Sequence record: PZ357121.2
Source: a phage
Length of the DNA stretch: 64,000 nucleotides
Reading direction: 5' to 3' (one strand)
Below, piece after piece: positions 6,552 to 63,117 of this stretch. The notes beneath the pieces are model-generated. The model was not told the DNA's origin and did no database searches. It saw only the letters and a program-made list of their open reading frames with translations. Numbering within the stretch: position 1 is the stretch's first letter; each line of letters opens with the position of its first letter. The position numbers and the translations under genes are program-made.

Positions 6552-7022
6552 TTAATCATGTTTCCACACCCCATCGGTATTTGACCAAAGTCGCTGATTA
6601 TCTGATCCTCGCCACAGCTTTTTAGTCGGAAGATTTTTCTCATACTTCCCATCAATAATAACATCAACATATTTAAGCATTTCTAGTTGTTTAATATCTT
6701 CAAACTTATATCCTGTCCACAACCAAATGCTTTTATTGGGATAAAGATTTTTTACTGTTTGAGCAATGCAATGAATAACATCTCGGTTATCAGGATAGAG
6801 AGGGTCACCTCCGGTTATAGTTAATCCTTCTATATAATCATTATTCAAACATTCAATTAATTGTTCTAGTGTTTCACCAGTGAATGGAACACCATTTCTA
6901 GCATTCCATGTTGATTTATTATAACACCCTTCGCATTTATGCAAACAACCTGTAACGAAAAGAACGACCCTGCATCCAGGACCATTCACAAAATCGCAAG
7001 GATAAAATCTATCATAATTCAT
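6552..7022 (-). CDS. nrdG: anaerobic ribonucleotide reductase activating protein NrdG (radical SAM)
   Basis: 156 aa; CxxxCxxC motif GCLHKCEGC; lies directly downstream of nrdD. Confidence 0.9.
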   Translation of the reverse strand: MNYDRFYPCDFVNGPGCRVVLFVTGCLHKCEGCYNKSTWNARNGVPFTGETLEQLIECLNNDYIEGLTITGGDPLYPDNRDVIHCIAQTVKNLYPNKSIWLWTGYKFEDIKQLEMLKYVDVIIDGKYEKNLPTKKLWRGSDNQRLWSNTDGVWKHD

Positions 7023-8310
7023 TGGTGTTTAACCCTATGCATGATTTCTTTATTTTTACCGAGATTAAATCCGCGTTCGTTCGGATTTCCCAAATAACCA
7101 CATGTTCTTCTTATTGTGTTCATCTTTTTAGGATCAGTTTCTCCACAAACTGAACAAACAAATCCGTTTTCAGTAGGAGTCATTTCATGGGTACTTCCGC
7201 ATGTAAAACATTTATCTACTGGCATATTAACACCAAAATAATCTAAATGTTGTGCAGCATAATCCCATACGGCCTCAAGACCTTTTAGGTTATTTTTCAT
7301 ATCAGGAAGTTCAACATAAGAAATGTGACCGCCGGTCGCTATGAAATGATATGGCGCTTCACGAGAAATCTTTTCAAACGGAGTAATATTTTCTTCTACT
7401 GAAACGTGGAAACTGTTAGTGTACCAGCCTTTATCGGTAACATCCTTTACACTTCCATATTTTTCTGTATCGAGTTTACAGAAGCGATAACAAAGGTTTT
7501 CAGCAGGAGTCGAATATAAACTAAAAGCAAAACCGGTTCTTTCAGTCCACTGCTTAAGATGAGCATTCATTTTAGTTAAAATTTCTTGTCCAATATCACG
7601 ACCGACAAGAATATTCAATTCGTGAATACCAATGTATCCTAAGGACACTGAACTTCTACCGTTTTTAAATAACTCAATTATATCGTCATCAGGTTTAAGA
7701 CGAACCCCGAATGCACCTTCTTGGTAAAGAATAGGAGCAACAGTCGCTTTAACACCCTTTAAAGAACTAATTCTACACATCAAGGCTTCAAAACACAGAT
7801 CCATTCGTTCATTAAACAACTCGATAAATTTCTGTTCATTGAACTGTGTTCCAATATAAGAATCTAATGCGATGCGAGGAAGATTCAGCGTTACAACACC
7901 GAGATTATTACGTCCATCAAGAATTTCATTACCAGTCGAATCTTTCCATACGCTCAAGAAACTACGGCAACCCATTGGAGAAACTGGAACTGAAGAACCG
8001 GTAATAGCTTTATTATTCTTAACCGAAATAATGTCAGGATACATTCTTTTGCTTGCGCATTCTAACGCAAGTTGTTTAATATCATAGTTCGGATCATCTT
8101 TATAAAGATTAACACCTTCTTCAACAAACATAACAAGTTTAGGAAAAATAGGAGTTATTCCATCACGACCAAGACCTTTAATGCGGTTTTTAAGAATTGC
8201 CTTCTGAATAATTCGTTCAGTCCAGTCAATTCCCGTACCAAATGTAATTGTCACAAAAGGCGTTTGTCCATTAGAGCTGAAAAGTGTATTTACTTCATCA
8301 TTATATTCAG
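7019..8310 (-). CDS. nrdD: anaerobic ribonucleotide reductase NrdD, exon 2
   Basis: glycyl radical motif RRTCGYLGNP and zinc ribbon CFTCGS...CSVCGE at C-terminus; exon boundary inferred at about 8310. Confidence 0.85.
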
Positions 8311-9343
8311 CATGAGTCGCAAATTCATGCCCGTTTATATGAAACAACAAAATTTGGATAGTCCATAGATATGCAACGTTCTTTTATAGTGCTAGGATGA
8401 AAATTTAGCGCTTTAGCTGCTTCTATATAAGACGTATACTTAATACCGTCAACAACCACATATTCAGGAACTTTATGAATAGTAGTCTTAATACTCAAAA
8501 CAAGAGGATGAGTTTCGACTTCACTTTCAGTGCAATTTAAATATTCCGCTGCTTTTTTAAAACTTCTAAAAGTTTTATTTTTAAGCTTTATCGATACTTG
8601 TTTTTTACTTTTTCGACTATTGATATTATTTTGCACATGTTCCTTAGATCTTCCGTTTTTAGCATAATATTCAGCTACAGAAGATTTTATATTGTTTTTA
8701 TGAGATTCGGATAACACTTTACCCTTATGAGCATCTCTTAATTTTTGAATATGTTCTTCAGTATCCGGATGCTTATAAAACTTTTTACCGCCTATGGATT
8801 TATTTAAACATTTTTTGCTATAAAAATATTTACGTATGACCTCTTCTTCATGTTTTAATGCATCTTTATAACTATCAAATGTTTTTAAAATTATCCATTT
8901 AGTAGGTGTATCAGTTTTTAAGCGTTCATTTATATACTTAGATGACGTTGTGTAAGTTTTCCAGTTTGTGGGCTTGTTTTTAATTGTTCTAAATTTTTTA
9001 TAACCGATATAAATGTCACCATTAGAAAACTTAACTAAGTATGTAAATGCGTCTTTATCTTTTATTTTAGTACAACGTCTTTTTATCCATTTCATTGTTT
9101 CACCTCGTATTCATAAGATAATCTTATTTATACAAGATGACTGCTGCATGTCGCCATGCAGATTAGACTATATCTTCATCTTTCGATGCCGGCCGTTTCG
9201 AATAGCATTAGCTTCTATTCTACACCGCTACATTCATCACGGTTAGTCGTTAGGCATTTAGTTCAAAAGAACATTTAGCACGGGATTGTCTACTAGAGAG
9301 GTTCCCCGTTTAGACCGGTTTTACATGAGCCTGAATTAAATTA
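8311..9343 (-). mobile_element. group I self-splicing intron in nrdD (sunY-type), about 1033 nt, carrying a homing endonuclease ORF
   Basis: nrdD reading frame is interrupted; exon 1 ends ...TATGAGT followed by TAATTTAATTCAGG; conserved group I core GGTCTAAACGGGGAACCTCTCTAGTAGACAATCCCGTGCTAAAT at about 9255-9300; ORF sits 3' of the core; boundaries +/- a few nt. Confidence 0.8.
8325..9095 (-). CDS. I-TevII: intron-encoded GIY-YIG homing endonuclease, I-TevII-like
   Basis: 256 aa; N-terminal FTYLVKFSNGDIYIGYKK; NUMOD3-like repeats; C-terminal helix-turn-helix-like tail; GAGGTG before ATG at 9095. Confidence 0.75.
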   Translation of the reverse strand: MKWIKRRCTKIKDKDAFTYLVKFSNGDIYIGYKKFRTIKNKPTNWKTYTTSSKYINERLKTDTPTKWIILKTFDSYKDALKHEEEVIRKYFYSKKCLNKSIGGKKFYKHPDTEEHIQKLRDAHKGKVLSESHKNNIKSSVAEYYAKNGRSKEHVQNNINSRKSKKQVSIKLKNKTFRSFKKAAEYLNCTESEVETHPLVLSIKTTIHKVPEYVVVDGIKYTSYIEAAKALNFHPSTIKERCISMDYPNFVVSYKRA

Positions 9344-40804: not shown

Positions 40805-41539
40805 TTACCTTAAGATTGTTTCAATTTTAGAATAAAGCTCTTCTAAAGAGCCGTCGTTTGTAATAACTAAATCGCCTTCTTCAATAGGCAACCCAGCTTC
40901 TGTAATATGTTTATCAGTGGATTCCGTACCAGAGCGAACCACATGAATAACTGTAGCACCCATCGCTCTAGCGGTTTCCATTTCATGGACTTGGCGTGTA
41001 TCGGTTACAACATAGTAATCGAAATCACTTCCAATATAATCCATATAGTTTAATGCAAAAAGTTTAACCCAATACATACGGTCAAATAAATTAACGACAA
41101 CATCCGTACCGAGGGCTTGCATAAGACGGCGGATTGACCATGTGTCGTTGATATTATTTATAGCTTCACGCAGGGCTTCATATGGTTTAATATCTAGATA
41201 TGAATACCCACCTTCTAATGATGATAATACTTTAACATTATTAATTGGTAAATATTGACTTTGTAAATAAATTAGCGCTTCTTCCAATAATTCAATAACA
41301 TCCAACTTATTGAGATTTAATGGTGTTTCACGGTCGTATCCAACACCTTCGAAGTATTCATATTTCAACTCAGTGAATACATCAGGATTTTCAGCATGCC
41401 TACGTCCCCAGGCTATTGCTAGAGCGTCTTTAATCGGATATGCCAATTGGTATTTTACGGATTTAAAGTTTGAATTGATGTAATCGGCAGTAGTGTCTTT
41501 ACCACTACGTTTGATGCCGCTTAAAAAGATTAGCTCCAT
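40805..41539 (-). CDS. 1: deoxynucleoside monophosphate kinase gp1
   Basis: 244 aa; P-loop GIKRSGKDT; T4-like gene order 57A-1-3-2-4. Confidence 0.85.
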   Translation of the reverse strand: MELIFLSGIKRSGKDTTADYINSNFKSVKYQLAYPIKDALAIAWGRRHAENPDVFTELKYEYFEGVGYDRETPLNLNKLDVIELLEEALIYLQSQYLPINNVKVLSSLEGGYSYLDIKPYEALREAINNINDTWSIRRLMQALGTDVVVNLFDRMYWVKLFALNYMDYIGSDFDYYVVTDTRQVHEMETARAMGATVIHVVRSGTESTDKHITEAGLPIEEGDLVITNDGSLEELYSKIETILR

Positions 41540-41592
41540 AGGTTTTCCTCATATAATTTATGAATGATTATAACATACGGAGCTAGAAGCGA

Positions 41593-42177
41593 TTAACGCA
41601 AGGAAGGGTGTCTAGAAATGGATTTAGATTCGACCGCTTGACGTGGCTGTTGAGATACAATGACTTCGCCATCCTTTTCTATCGTCATATACGCGTAGTG
41701 AATAGTTGCTACGCACGTAACGGCAGGGTCAGAGTCTTCGGTGTAACTAAATTCAATTTCACTCAAATCAGAAATCCATGGTTTATAGAAATTTGCCGTC
41801 AAAACTACTTCGGTCTTATTGTTGTTTAAAATGTGCAAAGTAACAAACTCAGGACCATCTGAGTGGGCCGTATTATGTCCGGTTATATAGTTATTAGTGC
41901 TGAGCATCCATTTATACATGTTCATCCAGGACGTCATGTCTTCATCAACTATAAATCGTACAACAAAAGGGTCATATTCAAATGTGGTGCCTGCACGCAT
42001 TGCACGTCCTAACCCCATTGTGCCTGTCACAGTTTCAACAACAGGAATTCTCACACCTGGTAATGGAGCCGTTTGGGCATTGAGCACAAAACCTGAAGTT
42101 CGTGTACTATCTGGGATATCCACAACAAAGTTTGTTATATTTGTTTGGTTAAAAATCTGTCTCGCTGGACGAGTCAT
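41593..42177 (-). CDS. 3: tail completion and sheath stabilizer protein gp3
   Basis: ORF track 41593..42183 (GTG); ATG at 42177 with GAGGTG upstream gives 194 aa; called by position between 1 and 2. Confidence 0.65.
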   Translation of the reverse strand: MTRPARQIFNQTNITNFVVDIPDSTRTSGFVLNAQTAPLPGVRIPVVETVTGTMGLGRAMRAGTTFEYDPFVVRFIVDEDMTSWMNMYKWMLSTNNYITGHNTAHSDGPEFVTLHILNNNKTEVVLTANFYKPWISDLSEIEFSYTEDSDPAVTCVATIHYAYMTIEKDGEVIVSQQPRQAVESKSISRHPSLR

Positions 42178-42279
42178 AAGCACCTCAAAAACGCTTTAAT
42201 AAAAATGCAGTATAATGGTTTTAGGTCTCTTCCATTAATCCGGTTCAACAGAATATCAGAAGAACGGAAGAGAATAGAA

Positions 42280-43101
42280 TTAAGATTTCCAAACAGTATT
42301 CGCAGAGAAACGTTTTCCTTTTGACATAAACTGCTGAGTAGGTAACATGATTATGTTAGCCCAGTCTTTAGGAGCTATTTCTGTTATTGTTCCTCTAATG
42401 TGGCCTGGCAGGTATGCTTTAATCATTTTGTCAGCACCTTGAAATCCTTTCACCTTGCTCCAGTCTATCTTAAACTTTGTGTTATTAGTAATAGTAGTTG
42501 TGCTAGCATATTGCTTCAGCAATTCTTCAAGAAACTGTTGTCGTGCTTTAGGTGGGATATAGTGCAAGTTTAACCCATACATCAAATTATGTTTACCTAA
42601 TCCTAAATAAATAATCAAAGGATATCGGTCCCAGTATGGCAAAGTATCTTTATGTTTAGCATCATACACGTAAGTATAAATTTTGCCTGGCGTAGGCTTG
42701 ACTACTTTATGACCTTTTACACTTTTCTTAATTGTTTCAACAAACCACTTAGATGATTTGTTGTTTACTGCTGCGCCTTCATTTCTAATCTTTTCTCGTA
42801 TTGAACTGCGAAACGAGTTTATCATCAGAAGTTGACGTTCTTGCTTATTGAGTTTATTTTTAGGTTTAGATTCAAGCGTTTCAATTTTCTGTGCAGTCTT
42901 AATAGATGATGCATATCTAGACATTGCAGATGTAAACGACGAGTATTTTATTCCTTTTGATTCTGCAAATGCTTTTGCAGTGATTCCTTTCTCTTTAGCT
43001 TTCTTGTATTCTAATCCTATCTCAATCCATTTTCTTTCATTCATAGACTGAGCAATCTTAGTGGCTTGTACGCCTTCAGATATAATTTGGAATATGCTCA
43101 T
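42280..43101 (-). CDS. 2: DNA end protector protein gp2
   Basis: 273 aa; position and length match T4 gp2; start overlaps stop of upstream endonuclease gene (ATGA). Confidence 0.75.
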
Positions 43102-43748
43102 TCAACTTTCCTCATTTTACAATTATCACCATGCCAACGTTTATAAGGCGCAGGTTTACATTCTATACCGCAGTATTGGCATATCTTATTATGAGTATTT
43201 AAGTATCCTAATCTCATGTTTTCCTTTTCTTCAGGAGTTCTATTTCGTCCTGTAAGAGTATTTTTTATTTTGTCTCTAATCTCTTTGGGCATTATCCTGC
43301 CTCGGCCTGCTTTACCTATTTTAGCTTTATGCTCTTCGGATAATTTCTTACCCTTCTTAGCTAAACTCATTTTCTTTTTAGATTCTTCGGAAATAGGACC
43401 TAATTTTCTACCTCTGGATGAATCGCCTATTCTTTTTCGCACATCAATAGAACGGCCTCGTCCTCCCTTTCCTCCTAGGTCTATATTATATGTATCTTCT
43501 CTATCCACAAAAGATTGATCAACTAATTCTGCTTCCTTTTGGAAAGCCATTTCTTCATTTAGTAATTCGTCACCGGTATCATACACATATAATACTTCTT
43601 TTACAAAATTATCTAATCCGTATTTAGCATGGGCTTTTAAGATAATTTTACCTGTTCCTTTATAAGAATCATCCGGATTATTAGTTTTATGAACACCTAT
43701 ATAAATTTTATTATTTACGATGTTAGTTATTTTATATACAGTATACAT
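43098..43748 (-). CDS. free-standing GIY-YIG homing endonuclease (Seg-like) between genes 4 and 2
   Basis: 216 aa; canonical GIY-YIG N-terminus [21 protein letters not shown]; NUMOD3 repeats; C-terminal zinc finger CQYCGIECK...HGDNCK. Confidence 0.75.
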
Positions 43749-43749
43749 A

Positions 43750-44199
43750 TCATCCCTTATATCCTAAACGACGTAAACCGTCTTCTGTGAGAATTCTGAA
43801 TTTTATATTTCTCTTTTCTGCGACAGCAGAAGCAGCTTTCCATTTATCACAGTTCACAGACCACACGTAGATCTCGTTCATATAACGTTTCTTTGCTGCG
43901 GTCGTAAGATTTGCAGGCTTAATAGGTGGCTGAGTTTCTTTCTTTGGTTTTATTTCTACAAAGAACTCTTGACCTGATGCATCTTTCATCCATATGTCCA
44001 TATAGTATCGACGTTTCTTACCTTCGGCATTACAAAAATATGGAATTACTGCTGTTTCACTACCCCATGCAATAATTTCTGGATTTTTATCTAACCATTC
44101 GAAAAAGAATTTTTCCCAGTTTGAACGATACGTTATTTTGGTATGGTCTCCACGGTATTTTTTTAAATTTTTTGGGACCCATTTACCAGAGTAGGCCAT
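43750..44199 (-). CDS. 4: head completion protein gp4
   Basis: ORF track 43750..44343; ATG at 44197-44199 (MAYSGKWVPKNLKKYRGD) with GGAGGA upstream gives 149 aa, matching T4 gp4 length and N-terminus. Confidence 0.8.
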   Translation of the reverse strand: MAYSGKWVPKNLKKYRGDHTKITYRSNWEKFFFEWLDKNPEIIAWGSETAVIPYFCNAEGKKRRYYMDIWMKDASGQEFFVEIKPKKETQPPIKPANLTTAAKKRYMNEIYVWSVNCDKWKAASAVAEKRNIKFRILTEDGLRRLGYKG

Positions 44200-44210
44200 G
44201 TTGTCCTCCT

Positions 44211-44218
44211 TATAAATA
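44211..44218 (+). promoter_or_regulatory. T4 late promoter TATAAATA upstream of gene 53
   Basis: exact TATAAATA about 43 nt before the gene 53 start, in the divergent 4/53 intergenic region. Confidence 0.6.
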
Positions 44219-44260
44219 GTATTATTATTTATACCAATTTCATATTGGAAGGAGACTATC

Positions 44261-44836
44261 TTGTTATTTACATTCTTCGACCCAATAGGATACAGTGCTA
44301 AAACAGTTAATAAGAATGCACCTACTATTCCTATGACAGACATATTTCGTAACTATAAAGAGTACTTTAAGCGTGTTGCTGCCAATTATAGATTACGTTC
44401 TTATTATATTAAAGGCTCTCCGCGTCCTGAAGAACTAGCAAACATAATTTATGGCAACCCTCAATTATACTGGGTCCTTTTGATGTGTAATGACAACTAT
44501 GATCCGTATTATGGTTGGATTACATCTCAGGAAGCAGCGTATCAAGCTTCTATTCAGAAATATGCTAATGCCGGCGGCGACCAAGTTCTTTATCATATTA
44601 ATGAAAATCATGAGAAATTTTACAATTTGGTTTCATATCCAGACGAGCCTTTAGTGTGGTACGATAAAGGTGATGAAGCTCGTAAGTATCCGCAATATAA
44701 AGGACCTTTAGCTGCAGTAGATACTTATGAAGCTGCAGTATTAGATAATGAAAAACTTCGTAAAATAAAAATTGTTGCAAAAGAAGATATAAACTCGTTT
44801 ATCACAGATTTGATTCGTGAGATGGAGATTGCATAA
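44261..44836 (+). CDS. 53: baseplate wedge protein gp53
   Basis: 191 aa; TTG start with GGAG upstream; position between 4 and 5. Confidence 0.75.
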   Translation: MLFTFFDPIGYSAKTVNKNAPTIPMTDIFRNYKEYFKRVAANYRLRSYYIKGSPRPEELANIIYGNPQLYWVLLMCNDNYDPYYGWITSQEAAYQASIQKYANAGGDQVLYHINENHEKFYNLVSYPDEPLVWYDKGDEARKYPQYKGPLAAVDTYEAAVLDNEKLRKIKIVAKEDINSFITDLIREMEIA

Positions 44837-46572
44837 TGGAAATGATTAGCAGTAGCCTTAATTGGTTCGTGGGTGTTGTCGAGGACAGAATGGACCCGTT
44901 AAAACAAGGGCGAGTTCGAGTTCGAGTCGTTGGTCTTCATCCGGCGCAGAGAACACAAGGTGATGTACAAGGTATTCCTACAGAAAAACTTCCATGGATG
45001 ACTGTTATTCAACCTATTACGTCTGCATCAATGTCAGGTATTGGTGGTTCTGTTACAGGTCCTGTTGAAGGAACTCGAGTATATGGTCATTTCTTAGACA
45101 AATGGAAAACAAACGGGATTGTACTTGGTACATATGGCGGAATAGTACGTGAAAAGCCTAATAGACTTGAAGGTTTTTCAGACCCGACAGGTCAGTATCC
45201 GCGACGTTTAGGTAATGATACGAACGTATTAAACCAAGGTGGTGAAGCTGGTTATTATTCGAACTCTAACGTAATTCAAGATAACAACTTGGATTACGGT
45301 ATAAACCCAGATGATACAGATTTAGCAAATATTCCAGAAGATGACGACCCTAATTTTACAATAACAGAAATGTTACGTCGTGATGAAGGTCTTCGTGATA
45401 AAGTGTATTGGGACCATCTCGGGTATCCTACAGTAGGTATTGGACACCTTATCGTAATGGAAAAGACCCGAGATATGTCTCGAATTAATAAATTGTTATC
45501 TGATCAAGTAGGGCGTGAAGTAACAGGAAATCCGGGAACTATTACATTAGAAGAAGCAACAGCGTTATTTGAGAAGGACCTTTCTAAGATGCAGAAAGAC
45601 ATTCGTTCTAATTCTAAAGTAGGTCCTGTTTATGCTAAAATGAACAGATCTCGCCAAATGGCATTAGAAAACATGTGCTTCCAAATGGGCGTTGGTGGTG
45701 TAGCAAAATTCAATACTATGCTTAAAGCAATGGCCACAGGTGATTGGAAAACCGCATACAAATCTGGACGCGATTCGTTATGGTTCCAACAGACTAAAGG
45801 GCGTGCTTCACGTGTAACAACAATTATTTTAACTGGTAACATGGAATCATATGGCGTTCCTGTTAAAACACCACCTTCACCAGGAGTTGGTGCTGATTTA
45901 GTTACTAGAAATACCGATCCAGAAGACCCAGCTGGTCCTCCTGTTCCGTTAGATTCGCGTATCCTTTTTAAAGAACCGGAATCAAGTTATCGTGGTGAGT
46001 ATCCATACGTTCATGCTATGGAAACAGAAAGTGGTCATATCCAAGAATTTGACGATACTCCAGGTAATGAACGTTATCGCTTAGTTCATCCAACAGGGTC
46101 ATATGAGGAAGTTTCTCCGTCTGGGCGTCGTACTCGTAAAACTGTAGAAGACCTTTTTGACATCACTAATGGCGATGGGAACTTCTTGATTTCTGGTGAT
46201 AAACTTGTTAACGTTGGTGCTAACGAAATATATTATAACATGGCAGACCGCCTCCATCAAATAGATGGCAATGACACAATCTTTATTCGTGGTAACCAAT
46301 CTAAAACTGTTGAAGGCGATGGAACTCTTTACGTTAAGGGTAATATCAAAATAGTTGTTGACGGAAATGCAGATATTCTTGTTAAAGGTGATGCTAAAAC
46401 TCAGGTCGAAGGGAATCATGATTACACCGTCAATGGAAACGTTAAATGGACTGTTAACGGTAATGTTGATATGACTGTTGCCGGGGATTGGGCAGAAACA
46501 ATGTCTACAATGAGCTCAGTAGCTTCAGGACAATACACAATTGATGGTAGCCGTGTGGATGTCGGGTTATAA
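44836..46572 (+). CDS. 5: baseplate central spike / cell-puncturing lysozyme gp5
   Basis: 578 aa; N-terminal OB-fold region, internal lysozyme domain (…LRRDEGLRDKVYWDHLGYPTVGIGHL…), C-terminal beta-helix VxGxxxxxx repeats. Confidence 0.9.
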   Translation: MEMISSSLNWFVGVVEDRMDPLKQGRVRVRVVGLHPAQRTQGDVQGIPTEKLPWMTVIQPITSASMSGIGGSVTGPVEGTRVYGHFLDKWKTNGIVLGTYGGIVREKPNRLEGFSDPTGQYPRRLGNDTNVLNQGGEAGYYSNSNVIQDNNLDYGINPDDTDLANIPEDDDPNFTITEMLRRDEGLRDKVYWDHLGYPTVGIGHLIVMEKTRDMSRINKLLSDQVGREVTGNPGTITLEEATALFEKDLSKMQKDIRSNSKVGPVYAKMNRSRQMALENMCFQMGVGGVAKFNTMLKAMATGDWKTAYKSGRDSLWFQQTKGRASRVTTIILTGNMESYGVPVKTPPSPGVGADLVTRNTDPEDPAGPPVPLDSRILFKEPESSYRGEYPYVHAMETESGHIQEFDDTPGNERYRLVHPTGSYEEVSPSGRRTRKTVEDLFDITNGDGNFLISGDKLVNVGANEIYYNMADRLHQIDGNDTIFIRGNQSKTVEGDGTLYVKGNIKIVVDGNADILVKGDAKTQVEGNHDYTVNGNVKWTVNGNVDMTVAGDWAETMSTMSSVASGQYTIDGSRVDVGL

Positions 46573-46591: not shown

Positions 46592-47455
46592 ATGAAGAAA
46601 TCCAAAACCATACAATTCCGTTACATTTATAAATCAACAGTAACCAACCCAAAGGGGTTGGTTCGAATATATATAGGAAAGCATGAATCCAGATATTTTA
46701 ATCTAGAGGATGATAATTACGTAGGAAGCGGGGATTATATACAAAAGATTAAAAACAAACCAGGCTATGCTATAGATTTCGAAATTATCGAATTCGTTTC
46801 AACACTCGATGTTTTAAATGAAAGAGAAAAATTTTGGATATCTGAATATAGAAAAACAGGCCAGTGTGTTAATATAAAAGACGGTGGAGATGGATTTTCT
46901 TCAAACGATTTAAAACGAATGTGGTCTAATCCTGAGTATCGAGAAACTCAACTTAAAGCTTTGGCAAAAGGAAAATCTACAAAAGAATTTTCAGAAAAAA
47001 TTTCAAAAATTAATAAACTTAGATGTTCGGAATCGGAATATCGAAAGAAAATGAGTAATGCGATGAAAACTGCTTTTGAAAATGATCCCACATTAAAAAT
47101 TCGTATTTCTAATACTGTCAAATCTTTATGGAAATCCGATGAATATAGAAACAAATTAATTAATCATCCAGGAAAAATAGAAGGAACGAAAAAATCCTGG
47201 AATAATCCTTTAATAAGAAAATCAAGATTAGATACTAGAAATAAAAAACTAAGATCAGTTGAACCTTGGATTAGTATTGAAAAAGTCAAAAAACTTTGGG
47301 AGGATTTGGGAAAACCTCATCCGCAGAAATATAAATGGTTTAGAGAAAAAGCAATTGAACATAATCTACCGGATGTAAGTTATAACGCAATTTTAAAAGC
47401 ATTGAAAAAATGTGATTATAAATTTACACCATTGGAGAATTCAGTAATTGGCTAA
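46592..47455 (+). CDS. free-standing GIY-YIG homing endonuclease, SegC-like (between 5 and 5.1)
   Basis: 287 aa; FRYIYKSTVTNPKGLVRIYIGKHE, YVGSGDY, KFWISEY; repeated W-x-N/S-x-EYR motifs. Confidence 0.7.
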   Translation: MKKSKTIQFRYIYKSTVTNPKGLVRIYIGKHESRYFNLEDDNYVGSGDYIQKIKNKPGYAIDFEIIEFVSTLDVLNEREKFWISEYRKTGQCVNIKDGGDGFSSNDLKRMWSNPEYRETQLKALAKGKSTKEFSEKISKINKLRCSESEYRKKMSNAMKTAFENDPTLKIRISNTVKSLWKSDEYRNKLINHPGKIEGTKKSWNNPLIRKSRLDTRNKKLRSVEPWISIEKVKKLWEDLGKPHPQKYKWFREKAIEHNLPDVSYNAILKALKKCDYKFTPLENSVIG

Positions 47456-60802: not shown

Positions 60803-61729
60803 ATGTCAGGTTATAATGCACAAAACCCTAAAGAATTAAAGGACGTAATATTACGTCGTTTAGGCGCTCCTATTGTAAATGTTGAATTAACTACAGACCA
60901 AATTTATGATTGTATTTCACGAGCGTTAGAACTTTATGGCGAATACCATTTTGACGGGTTGAATAAAGGTTTCCACGTATTTTTTGTTGATGACGAAGAA
61001 AAATACCGTCATGGTGTATTTGATATGCGTGGTTCTAATGTATTTGCTGTAACAAGAATTATAAGAACAAATGTTGGCTCTATTACTTCAATGGATGGTA
61101 ATGCAACTTATCCATGGTTCACTGATTTCCTTTTAGGAATGGCAGGTGTTTCAGGTGGTATGGGTAGTAATTGTGGTAAATTCTACGGCCCGAACGCTTT
61201 TGGCGCTGACCTCGGGTATTATTCTCAATTAGTATCTTATATGGGTATGCTTCAAGATATGATTGCTCCTCTTCCAGATTTTTGGTTTAACTCTGCAAAC
61301 GAGCAATTAAAAGTAATGGGTAACTTTAGACAGAAAGATGTCATTATCGTTGAATCGTATGTTCGCTCTTATATCGAGACCCATAAGATGGTAGGAAATA
61401 CAGTAGGGTACGGTCAGGTCGGTCCTCGTGATTCATGGTCTATTTCTGAACGTTATGATAATCCAGACCATAATTTGGTCGGACGTCGAGTTGGTGAAGA
61501 TCCTGCAACTAAACAAGGCGCATATAACAACCGCTGGGTTAAAGATTATGCAACTGCATTAGCTAAAGAGCTTAATGGACAAATTCTTGCTAAACATCAA
61601 GGTATGATGTTACCTGGTGGCGTCACTGTTGATGGTGTTCGATTAATTGAAGAAGCTCGTTTAGAGAAAGAAGCTTTACGAGAAGAGTTATATTTACTGG
61701 ACCCTCCTGCAGGTATTTTGGTAGGTTAA
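60803..61729 (+). CDS. 13: neck protein gp13
   Basis: 308 aa; position after wac. Confidence 0.85.
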
Positions 61730-61730
61730 T

Positions 61731-62366
61731 ATGGCAACATACTACAGATTGTATATTACAACATTTGAAACATCCACCGGTATAAAGATTTATGGTGGTA
61801 AACACAAATCAGTTTACGAAGACCCTTCAAAAGACCCTTATACTGGGTCTGGCACCTTTATACGAAGGGCCAAAAGAAAATACGGTCCGTCTTGTATAAA
61901 AGAAATTATATGGTCTAAGCCATTTGAATCTAAAGCTCTAATGGATGAAGCTGAAGAGTTACTGGTAGATGAATTATCCATTTTAGAAAATTGCGCAAAT
62001 CTTGTTAAAGGTGGTGCAGGCGGAAGGTCGTATATTAACCCAGAAGATAATCCATCTATAGGACAAAAACGTTCAGCCCAATCTAAAAAGAAAATGTCTG
62101 ACGCCGCAAAATCAAGAAAATGGACTGAAGAAGGGTTAAGAAAACGTAAAGAATCTACAGCAAGAATGTGGAAAGATTTCAAACATAGACATCCTGATTT
62201 TTCTGGTTCAAAAAATCCAGCAGCTCGAAAAGTTAGTGTAAATGGTAAAATATTTAACACCTGCAAAGAATGTGGTGAAGAATTTAATATCACATCAAGC
62301 GCGGTTATAGGCCGATGCAAAAACAACAAACCTAAATGGGCAGGATGGAATTATGTCGACGTATAA
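61731..62366 (+). CDS. free-standing GIY-YIG-like homing endonuclease between neck genes 13 and 14
   Basis: 211 aa; [24 protein letters not shown]; NUMOD3-like repeats; C-terminal CKECGEE...GRCKNN; starts 1 nt after gene 13 stop and overlaps gene 14 start by 14 nt. Confidence 0.6.
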
Positions 62367-63117
62367 TTCAAATTTATTTGCAAAGTTAGAAAACCGAGAA
62401 GGCTATTCTAAAACTAATGAAACAGAGATTTTAAACAAATACGTGAACTTCAACAAATACGAAAATAGCCAGACATTAGCCGATGTTCTAGTGGCAGAAA
62501 GCATACAGATGCGCGGTATTGAATGTTTTTATGTTCCACGTGAATATGTTGCCGTGGACCTTATCTTTGGTGAGGACCTTAAAAATAAATTTACTAAAGC
62601 ATGGAAATTTGCTGCATATCTGAACTCTTTTGAAGGTTATGAAGGAGCGAAATCGTTCTTCAGCAACTTCGGAATGCAAGTTCAAGACGAAGTTACATTA
62701 TCTATTAACCCGGGTCTTTTCAAACACCAGGTCAACAATCAGGAGCCCAAGGAAGGTGATTTAATATACTTCCCAATGGACAACAGTTTGTTTGAGATTA
62801 ACTGGGTTGAACCATATGACCCATTCTATCAAGTAGGTAAAAATGCGATTCGTAAAATTACTGCAGGCAAGTTTATTTACTCTGGCGAAGAAATCAATCC
62901 GGTGCTTCAGAAAAATGAAGGTATCAATATACCTGAATTTAGTGACTTGGAACTTAACCCTGTTAGAAATCTTGACGGTATCCATGACATTAATATCGAT
63001 GAGTATTCTGAAGTTGAGCAAATCAATTCAGAGGCAAGTGAATACGTTGAGCCGTATGTAGTAGTTAACAACCGTGGTAGACAAAATTCACCATTTGACG
63101 ATGGGTTTATGAATTAA
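62353..63117 (+). CDS. 14: neck protein gp14
   Basis: 254 aa. Confidence 0.85.

Follow-up and report, generated by a model that had tools for sequence, protein, structure and literature searches.

A Seg-type GIY-YIG homing endonuclease gene, very probably inserted, between genes 4 and 2 of an RB69-like phage

Between genes 4 and 2 of a T4-type phage lies a Seg-like GIY-YIG open reading frame (ORF), and we consider it very probable that this is a free-standing, promoter-less homing endonuclease gene of the Seg type that was inserted precisely at that junction. The ORF belongs to a stretch of 64,000 nucleotides (sequence record PZ357121.2; hereafter the window) from an RB69-like Mosigvirus, whose best match over 42000–44900 is phage HX01 (98.6%). 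The features on which the argument rests are as follows:

44226..44233, minus strand: T4 late-promoter consensus TATAAATA, upstream of gene 4 (used for its position only)
43750..44199, minus strand: gene 4, head completion protein of 149 aa, the upstream neighbour in the same late operon
43749..43797, minus strand: diverged tract at the 3′ end of gene 4, inherited together with the endonuclease gene, from aligned genomes with and without that gene
43753..43758, minus strand: Shine–Dalgarno sequence AAGGGA for the endonuclease, inside the last gene 4 codons
43098..43748, minus strand: Seg-like GIY-YIG homing endonuclease ORF, free-standing, 216 aa
43461..43748, minus strand: N-terminal GIY-YIG nuclease domain, aa 1–96, with Y5, Y16, G18, E72 and N88 conserved
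43194..43460, minus strand: five tandem 17-aa NUMOD3-like units, aa 97–185, a predicted extended DNA-binding linker
43119..43181, minus strand: CCHC finger-like sequence motif, C190-x2-C193-x12-H206-x3-C210
43107..43113, minus strand: Shine–Dalgarno sequence GAGGAAA for gene 2, in the last endonuclease codons, 5 nt before the ATG
42280..43101, minus strand: gene 2, DNA end protector of 273 aa, the downstream neighbour, coupled via an ATGA overlap

The ORF is far beyond chance, since phmmer E-values run from 1e-138 to 1e-17 among the 120 best-listed of 283 homologues with E ≤ 1e-5, and PHROG 314 ('homing endonuclease') matches at E = 2e-50. Many of these 283 homologues, recovered from a large protein collection, carry PF01541, PF19835 or PF07460. 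Both signature motifs are present with their tyrosines (V-Y5-K and I-Y16-I-G18), and in a 52-sequence alignment Y5, Y16, G18, Y29, G31, Y87, N88 and G93 are invariant, H20 is nearly so, and E72 is kept in 51 of the 52 sequences (N88 in all 52). A profile built from this alignment matches the I-TevI catalytic domain, with Y5/Y16/E72/N88 corresponding to I-TevI Y6/Y17/E75/N90; the profile was needed before I-TevI was reached, as a single-sequence search of PDB sequences with the endonuclease alone returned nothing at E ≤ 1. The AlphaFold model (pLDDT 92) comprises an N-terminal beta-beta-alpha-beta-alpha unit, then five short helices, and at the C-terminus a small beta-hairpin with a helix, the first of these being the fold of the GIY-YIG superfamily, a three-stranded sheet with flanking helices. 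Profile match, homologues and fold together bear out the original prediction, made from the sequence alone, that the ORF is a GIY-YIG homing endonuclease gene.

That prediction had further called the gene a canonical, textbook member of the family, a description that has to be withdrawn. The canonical GIY-YIG model PF01541 reaches 16.1 bits against a threshold of 22.6, and TIGR01453, the NCBIfam 'group I intron endonuclease' model, 45 bits against a cut-off of 56, and for this reason we do not class the endonuclease as canonical or I-TevI-type; PF19835 (SegE_GIY-YIG) stays narrowly under its cut-off of 25, at 21–24.4 bits. No arginine of the endonuclease aligns with the catalytic R27 of I-TevI, and the helix that bears R27 is an insertion relative to the endonuclease family. 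A loop replaces it, in which the invariant or nearly invariant H20, Y29, G31 and G33 sit. The same arrangement is found in T4 SegC, SegD and SegE, the closest named proteins, and the endonuclease is therefore a variant of the Seg type. The comparison with the Seg proteins that had been proposed gave significant BLASTP matches to T4 SegD (3e-28), SegC (3e-24) and SegE (4e-19), and segA and segB were reached by tblastn through genes so annotated in other phages (43–48% over the nuclease domain). Judged from its sequence, the protein is a Seg-type GIY-YIG endonuclease.

Beyond the nuclease domain, the linker passes the Pfam threshold for NUMOD3 (20.7–26.1 bits against a cut-off of 20.4; scanned alone, it scores 26.1 with two stretches), and five units are visible, in agreement with the NUMOD3 repeats first proposed. 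The AlphaFold model places linker helices at residues 101–111, 121–131, 138–148, 155–165 and 172–184, most of them at pLDDT >90. The proposed C-terminal zinc finger corresponds to the CCHC motif, which is kept in all eight homologues compared at the 4/2 junction, and in about 33 of the 52 aligned homologues, but the tail matches no Pfam family and is best described as a putative finger.

The fit of the ORF between its neighbours is tight on both sides. Its coding strand begins as ...TAT AAG GGA TGA T ATG TAT ACT..., with a single nucleotide separating the gene 4 stop from the endonuclease start (TGA 43752..43750, T 43749, ATG 43748..43746), and ends as ...AGG AAA GTT GAA TGA GCA..., where the TGA stop and the start codon of gene 2 overlap in an ATGA on minus-strand bases 43101..43098. 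This overlap had been predicted correctly; the accompanying statement that the ORF ends 2 nt from the gene 4 stop is in error, as it is the start of the ORF that abuts gene 4, at a distance of 1 nt. In genomes without the endonuclease, an AAGGGG equivalent to its Shine–Dalgarno sequence serves gene 2. At the other end, the last 33 nt, which include the gene 2 Shine–Dalgarno sequence, are identical in the endonuclease gene of phage ECO111 5-P, which is otherwise 45% identical.

Gene 4 encodes a protein 88% identical in amino acids to T4 gp4; the program-called ORF at 43750..44343 overextends it, and the annotated start corresponds to 44199. Farther downstream of gene 2 follow gp3 and gp1 (dNMP kinase), and gp53 and gp5 are encoded divergently on the plus strand. 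The late-promoter box at 44226..44233 is probably the promoter of the gene 4–endonuclease–gene 2 transcript, and a second box, for gene 53, lies back to back with it in the 4/53 intergenic region (44211–44218, plus strand). Within the window TATAAATA occurs at chance frequency (10 copies against 8.9 expected), and only the positions of these two boxes are used here. The original prediction had placed the ORF at a divergent early/late boundary; instead, co-directional structural genes flank it, and the point of divergence lies about 450 bp away in the 4/53 region, which is a late/late boundary because the two late-promoter boxes stand there back to back. Neither the endonuclease ORF nor the sequence immediately ahead of it contains an exact late-promoter box, and scans for sigma-70 promoters and terminators gave chance-level results. 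Hairpins that hide the ribosome-binding site have been described for some T4 endonucleases; here, folding of an RNA hairpin that would mask the endonuclease ribosome-binding site was not significant (z-score −1.45, with 20 of 200 shuffles as good), and the gene 2 start likewise showed no significant RNA structure. The arrangement points to a promoter-less cassette in a late operon. Such cassettes occur in T4 as segC, segF, segG and several mob genes (PMC2988022).

Comparison with related genomes marks the gene as an addition. In T4, gene 4 (76885–77337) abuts gene 2 (76061–76885) with nothing between, so that the expected absence of an endonuclease from the T4 junction was confirmed by synteny. 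Among about 153 closely matching Mosigvirus records, the gene is present in six, representing four phages (HX01, GADS24, ChristianSchoenbein and p000v), where it is annotated as 'homing endonuclease' and is 99.5% identical at the amino acid level. An insert of 646 bp (43102–43747) is missing from the five endonuclease-less Mosigviruses that we aligned and from about 147 further records, and the gene is therefore an insertion relative to most relatives, as had been surmised. RB69 itself has been reported to have no such endonuclease genes (PMC2993671); with at least five endonuclease-like ORFs in the window, the notion that phages of the RB69 type are without them needs correcting.

An alignment of 5.9 kb, comprising the window, four other carriers and five endonuclease-less Mosigviruses, carries evidence for mobility. 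All 17 fixed differences between carriers and endonuclease-less genomes fall within 43748–43797, the first of these positions being the first base of the endonuclease ATG, and there are none on the gene 2 side. The diverged tract is 67% identical to the endonuclease-less allele, against 97% for the rest of gene 4, and its divergence alters only two amino acids (V to I and K to R). Among the carriers, the cassette formed by gene and tract is 0.4–0.7% diverged versus 1.8–3.3% for the flanks (Fisher p = 5e-3 to 6e-6), that is, 3–6 times less. Tract lengths range from 50 to 84 bp, with end points that differ between genomes: in the other four carriers the diverged tract extends to about 43831, with 26 fixed differences, versus an end at 43797 in the window, whose positions 43798–43840 are of the type found in the endonuclease-less phage ST0 (1 difference, versus 10–11 to the other carriers). 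A young cassette in older, varied backgrounds, together with co-converted tracts of unequal length, is what homing by double-strand break repair predicts (PMC2988022). On the strength of this alignment, the co-inherited diverged flank, the young cassette and the variable tract length are footprints of homing in Mosigvirus, although ordinary homologous recombination could also have produced the difference in tract length.

The origin of the tract itself is a separate matter. When the gene 4 ends from every homologous locus retrieved were searched for its donor, none matched the diverged 50-bp tract. We also considered recoding of the gene 4 end as a general patch conferring self-immunity and rejected it: the endonuclease-less Lazarusvirus phage Abraxas shares the carrier-type gene 4 end, the diverged tract is therefore not general, and we do not place the cleavage site from it. 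The tract may be the footprint of a donor, or perhaps a patch of local immunity.

The junction is occupied well beyond Mosigvirus, and the suggestion that the insertion is lineage-specific does not hold. The arrangement of gene 4, endonuclease and gene 2 occurs in eight genera, that is, in at least seven besides Mosigvirus, across two subfamilies, as well as in four metagenomic T4-like contigs whose homologues are 73%, 63%, 62% and 49% identical. Full-length homologues at this position were recovered from Gaprivervirus (P479, PSD2001 and Yersinia phage P8; 65%), Karamvirus (RZH; 59%), Lazarusvirus (KARL-1, Konradin and Lazarus; 50%), Lasallevirus (Acj61; 47%), Gelderlandvirus (STP4-a; 44%) and Pseudotevenvirus (RB16 and GAP161; 41% by tblastn, with RB16 at 46% by global alignment). 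These homologues share the overlapping junctions of the window gene, the RB16 and Acj61 records already annotate a 'Seg-like homing endonuclease' between genes 4 and 2, and one homologue of 37% identity was found in an unrelated genomic context. The divergence of the endonuclease parallels that of its neighbours, with identities for gp4, endonuclease and gp2 of 69/65/70% in P479, 51/46/51% in RB16 and 64/52/62% in KARL-1.

Within Gaprivervirus, Lazarusvirus and Mosigvirus the site exists in three states, occupied by the endonuclease gene, occupied by a different endonuclease gene, or empty, and a longer sub-lineage of 240–250 aa sits at it in ECO111 5-P, STP4-a and Kimel. We regard the chances as evenly balanced that the 4/2 junction is a long-lived, dedicated homing site, at which one Seg-like lineage has kept step with its host genes through two subfamilies of the Straboviridae and two sub-lineages (about 215 and about 240–250 aa) interchange, each with a genus-specific 3′ tail that contains the ribosome-binding site of gene 2. 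Were this so, the junction would offer a natural system for the cycle of invasion, loss and reinvasion and for competition of endonuclease against endonuclease.

For the way in which the inserted gene would act, we infer cleavage activity, target site and expression timing by analogy. The late promoter between genes 4 and 53 would drive late transcription of the gene together with gene 4, and translation of the endonuclease would be coupled to that of gene 4 through the Shine–Dalgarno sequence that serves gene 2 in empty genomes. On either side of the junction lies the conserved coding end of an essential gene (...ACNGAAGAYGG... for gene 4, ATGAGYATWTTYCAA for gene 2). The organisation of I-TevI is modular, and from the analogy with it and with SegB we propose that, in a mixed infection, the arm of NUMOD3 units and CCHC motif would bind at the empty 4/2 junction of a related phage, on a long and partly degenerate site, and that the tethered GIY-YIG domain would cut close by, the likeliest places being the final ~50 bp of gene 4 and the junction itself. 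Repair of the double-strand break off the endonuclease-carrying genome would then copy the gene, with a variable length of gene 4 flank, into the recipient. For SegB, which has a 27-bp site, cleavage is site-specific and leaves 2-nt 3′ overhangs, and inheritance in crosses is close to 100% (PMC2330249). The searchable literature yielded no paper on an endonuclease at the 4/2 junction, nor on cleavage by, or preferential inheritance of, the window gene or its homologues found there.

Homing of this kind might also serve more than selfish spread. It is possible, though we doubt it, that the main effect is competition between phages, in which the endonuclease would cut co-infecting relatives at an essential late operon and exclude their local markers, much as SegB does against T2L. 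[quoted passage not shown] Such exclusion would, however, be a consequence of the same homing mechanism rather than a separate one.

Less probable, and in our view unlikely, is a decaying or inactive endonuclease whose ORF is intact but which no longer homes and persists as precise loss is rare, the last of these because the 3′ end of the gene carries the gene 2 ribosome-binding site. The window copy does bear a unique substitution, P186H, just before the finger and in a column where proline is commonest among the homologues; the endonuclease is rare in Mosigvirus; endonuclease-less Lazarusvirus genomes with carrier-type flanks are compatible with precise loss; and the embedded Shine–Dalgarno sequence would penalise imprecise deletion. 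Yet the residues of the catalytic motifs and the CCHC motif are all intact, and five phages from different continents differ by only 3–5 nt over 646 bp, against 3–6 times more in the flanks, which argues for recent spread.

We regard it as highly improbable that the gene is not mobile at all and that a single mosaic insertion by illegitimate recombination, spread by ordinary recombination, left a protein acting as a DNA-binding regulator. I-TevI is also a transcriptional autorepressor (PMC2988022), and variable tract lengths alone do not prove break-induced repair, but eight genera have the same family at exactly this junction, at least three of them with presence/absence polymorphism, the residues of the nuclease are conserved, and no operator-like site was identified. 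An endonuclease encoded within a group I intron can be dismissed: the sub-threshold TIGR01453 match and the database records that name some homologues 'intron endonuclease' are countered by an ORF that takes up all the space between two complete genes, each conserved in its own right, with one 1-nt and one overlapping junction, and by the absence of any Rfam match, to an intron or another RNA family, at E ≤ 1 in 41500–45000.

Free-standing endonuclease genes of the GIY-YIG family belong to the textbook picture of T4-type phages, and set beside the known systems this gene is an ordinary and already catalogued one, near-identical genes being annotated at the 4/2 junction in RefSeq (HX01, p000v and others) and in GenBank. 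Among the T4 proteins, the nuclease domain is 41% identical to that of SegD, 44% to that of SegC and 36% to that of SegE; all three share with the window endonuclease the 'YIGxHxT...DxYxGSG' variant without the R27 helix, and are likewise free-standing in a T4-type genome. Their loci differ, however, with segC after 5.1, segD between 23 and 24, and segE between inh and uvsW, and the similarity is confined to aa 2–143, so that the five NUMOD3-like units and the CCHC tail are not shared. Because the locus differs and the similarity is not full-length, the endonuclease is not an orthologue of any named T4 seg gene. The segC gene does resemble it in being a promoter-less cassette on a host transcript (PMC2988022).

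I-TevI differs in several respects: it is intron-encoded, has its own promoters, and carries R27 and H31 on the helix that is absent from the window endonuclease; its finger lies in the linker and its end is a helix-turn-helix, whereas in the window endonuclease the finger-like motif is C-terminal and no helix-turn-helix was found. SegH, annotated in vB_EcoM_SYGD1, is a free-standing GIY-YIG endonuclease with 41% identity over 74% of the window protein; this tblastn match covers query residues 2–161 only, and the similarity therefore stops before the C-terminal tail. In a 2005 study by Sandegren and colleagues, SegH is said to replace mobC at another locus.

Close counterparts are the annotated genes between genes 4 and 2 of RB16, GAP161, Acj61, KARL-1/Lazarus, STP4-a, P479 and RZH, which share flanks, orientation, overlapping junctions, architecture and CCHC tail with the window gene at 41–65% amino acid identity and differ from it in belonging to phages of other genera and hosts. 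The mild interest of the gene lies in this 4/2 junction, a recurrent polymorphic site for two related endonuclease sub-lineages in many genera; the Mosigvirus copies with and without the gene have the modest further value of ready-made pairs of donor and recipient with which to map the site of a Seg enzyme.

The junction between genes 4 (head completion) and 2 (DNA end protector) harbors more than one kind of endonuclease. In the Escherichia phage ECO111 5-P, a Mosigvirus whose gp2 and gp4 are 99% and 96% identical to those of the window, we recovered at this site a distinct, longer endonuclease of 240 aa (locus L006, 2501..3223), which shares 45% identity with the Seg-type GIY-YIG endonuclease of the window and 63% with that of Salmonella phage STP4-a. 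The final 33 nt of the ECO111 5-P and window endonuclease genes are identical. Gene 4 of ECO111 5-P shows another recoding at its end, with GWRG in place of the GYKG of the window. Lazarusvirus repeats this Mosigvirus pattern: the Acinetobacter phage Kimel encodes a long-type endonuclease of 247 aa (locus L021, 1093..1836) at the same site as that of KARL-1 (locus L007, 2492..3142), and the two proteins are 46% identical, with the last ~41 nt of their genes, including the gene 2 Shine-Dalgarno, nearly identical. The 3' tail of these genes is genus-specific rather than endonuclease-type-specific, which suggests that one endonuclease replaced another via crossover in the finger-coding segment.

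Codon 186 of the window copy (43191..43193, minus strand), located four residues ahead of the first Cys of the finger, encodes His, whereas all four other Mosigvirus copies encode Pro (CCT to CAT). Pro is also the most frequent residue in this alignment column (18 of 52 homologs), and a sequencing error in the window copy is possible.

On the other side of gene 2, the Gaprivervirus Escherichia phage P479 carries a second 'putative mobile endonuclease' directly downstream, between genes 2 and 3 (locus L004, 3969..4628), which places an endonuclease gene on either side of gene 2 in this phage. VR7 and VR25 possess the endonuclease gene in the 2/3 interval and lack the one between genes 4 and 2. 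In the window, the head completion protein gp4 (43750..44199, minus strand) matches the TnsA-like endonuclease N-terminal domain (Pfam PF08722, E=5e-20). Its mechanical ORF reaches 44343, but the ATG at 44199 is the start that is both annotated and conserved.

In the 64 kb, endonuclease-like ORFs number at least five; RB69 itself was reported to lack them (PMC2993671):

8325..9095, minus strand, SegE-type GIY-YIG ORF, 256 aa
37358..38029, minus strand, ORF with finger, NUMOD3 and nuclease domain, 223 aa
43098..43748, minus strand, the endonuclease between genes 4 and 2
46592..47455, plus strand, ORF immediately 3' of gene 5, 287 aa
61731..62366, plus strand, Seg-like GIY-YIG ORF, 211 aa

The 256-aa ORF scores 26.6 bits with PF19835, above the cut-off, additionally contains NUMOD3-like and NUMOD1 motifs, and overlaps the start of ORF 7019..8350, which from its sequence looks like a candidate anaerobic ribonucleotide reductase gene (nrdD). 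The 223-aa ORF, probably a homing endonuclease of another type, has an N-terminal CxxC...HxxWC finger, resembling the C-terminal tail of the protein between genes 4 and 2; it also contains a NUMOD3 unit, and its C-terminus holds a nuclease domain of DUF559/RAP-like type.

The 211-aa ORF is 35% identical to the endonuclease between genes 4 and 2 over 147 aa (E=5e-8) and shows a weak match to the I-TevI DNA-binding domain. Two ORFs, 60803..61729 and 62353..63117, both on the plus strand, enclose it tightly: a single nucleotide separates it from one of them, and it overlaps the other. The endonuclease gene between genes 4 and 2 is inserted in this manner too. The 287-aa ORF retrieved no Pfam match at E <= 0.01; its N-terminus is Seg-type (RIYIGKHES...DDNYVGSGDY), a tblastn alignment of 157 aa (E=7e-4) gives 29% identity to the endonuclease between genes 4 and 2, and its position is analogous to that of T4 5.1/segC.
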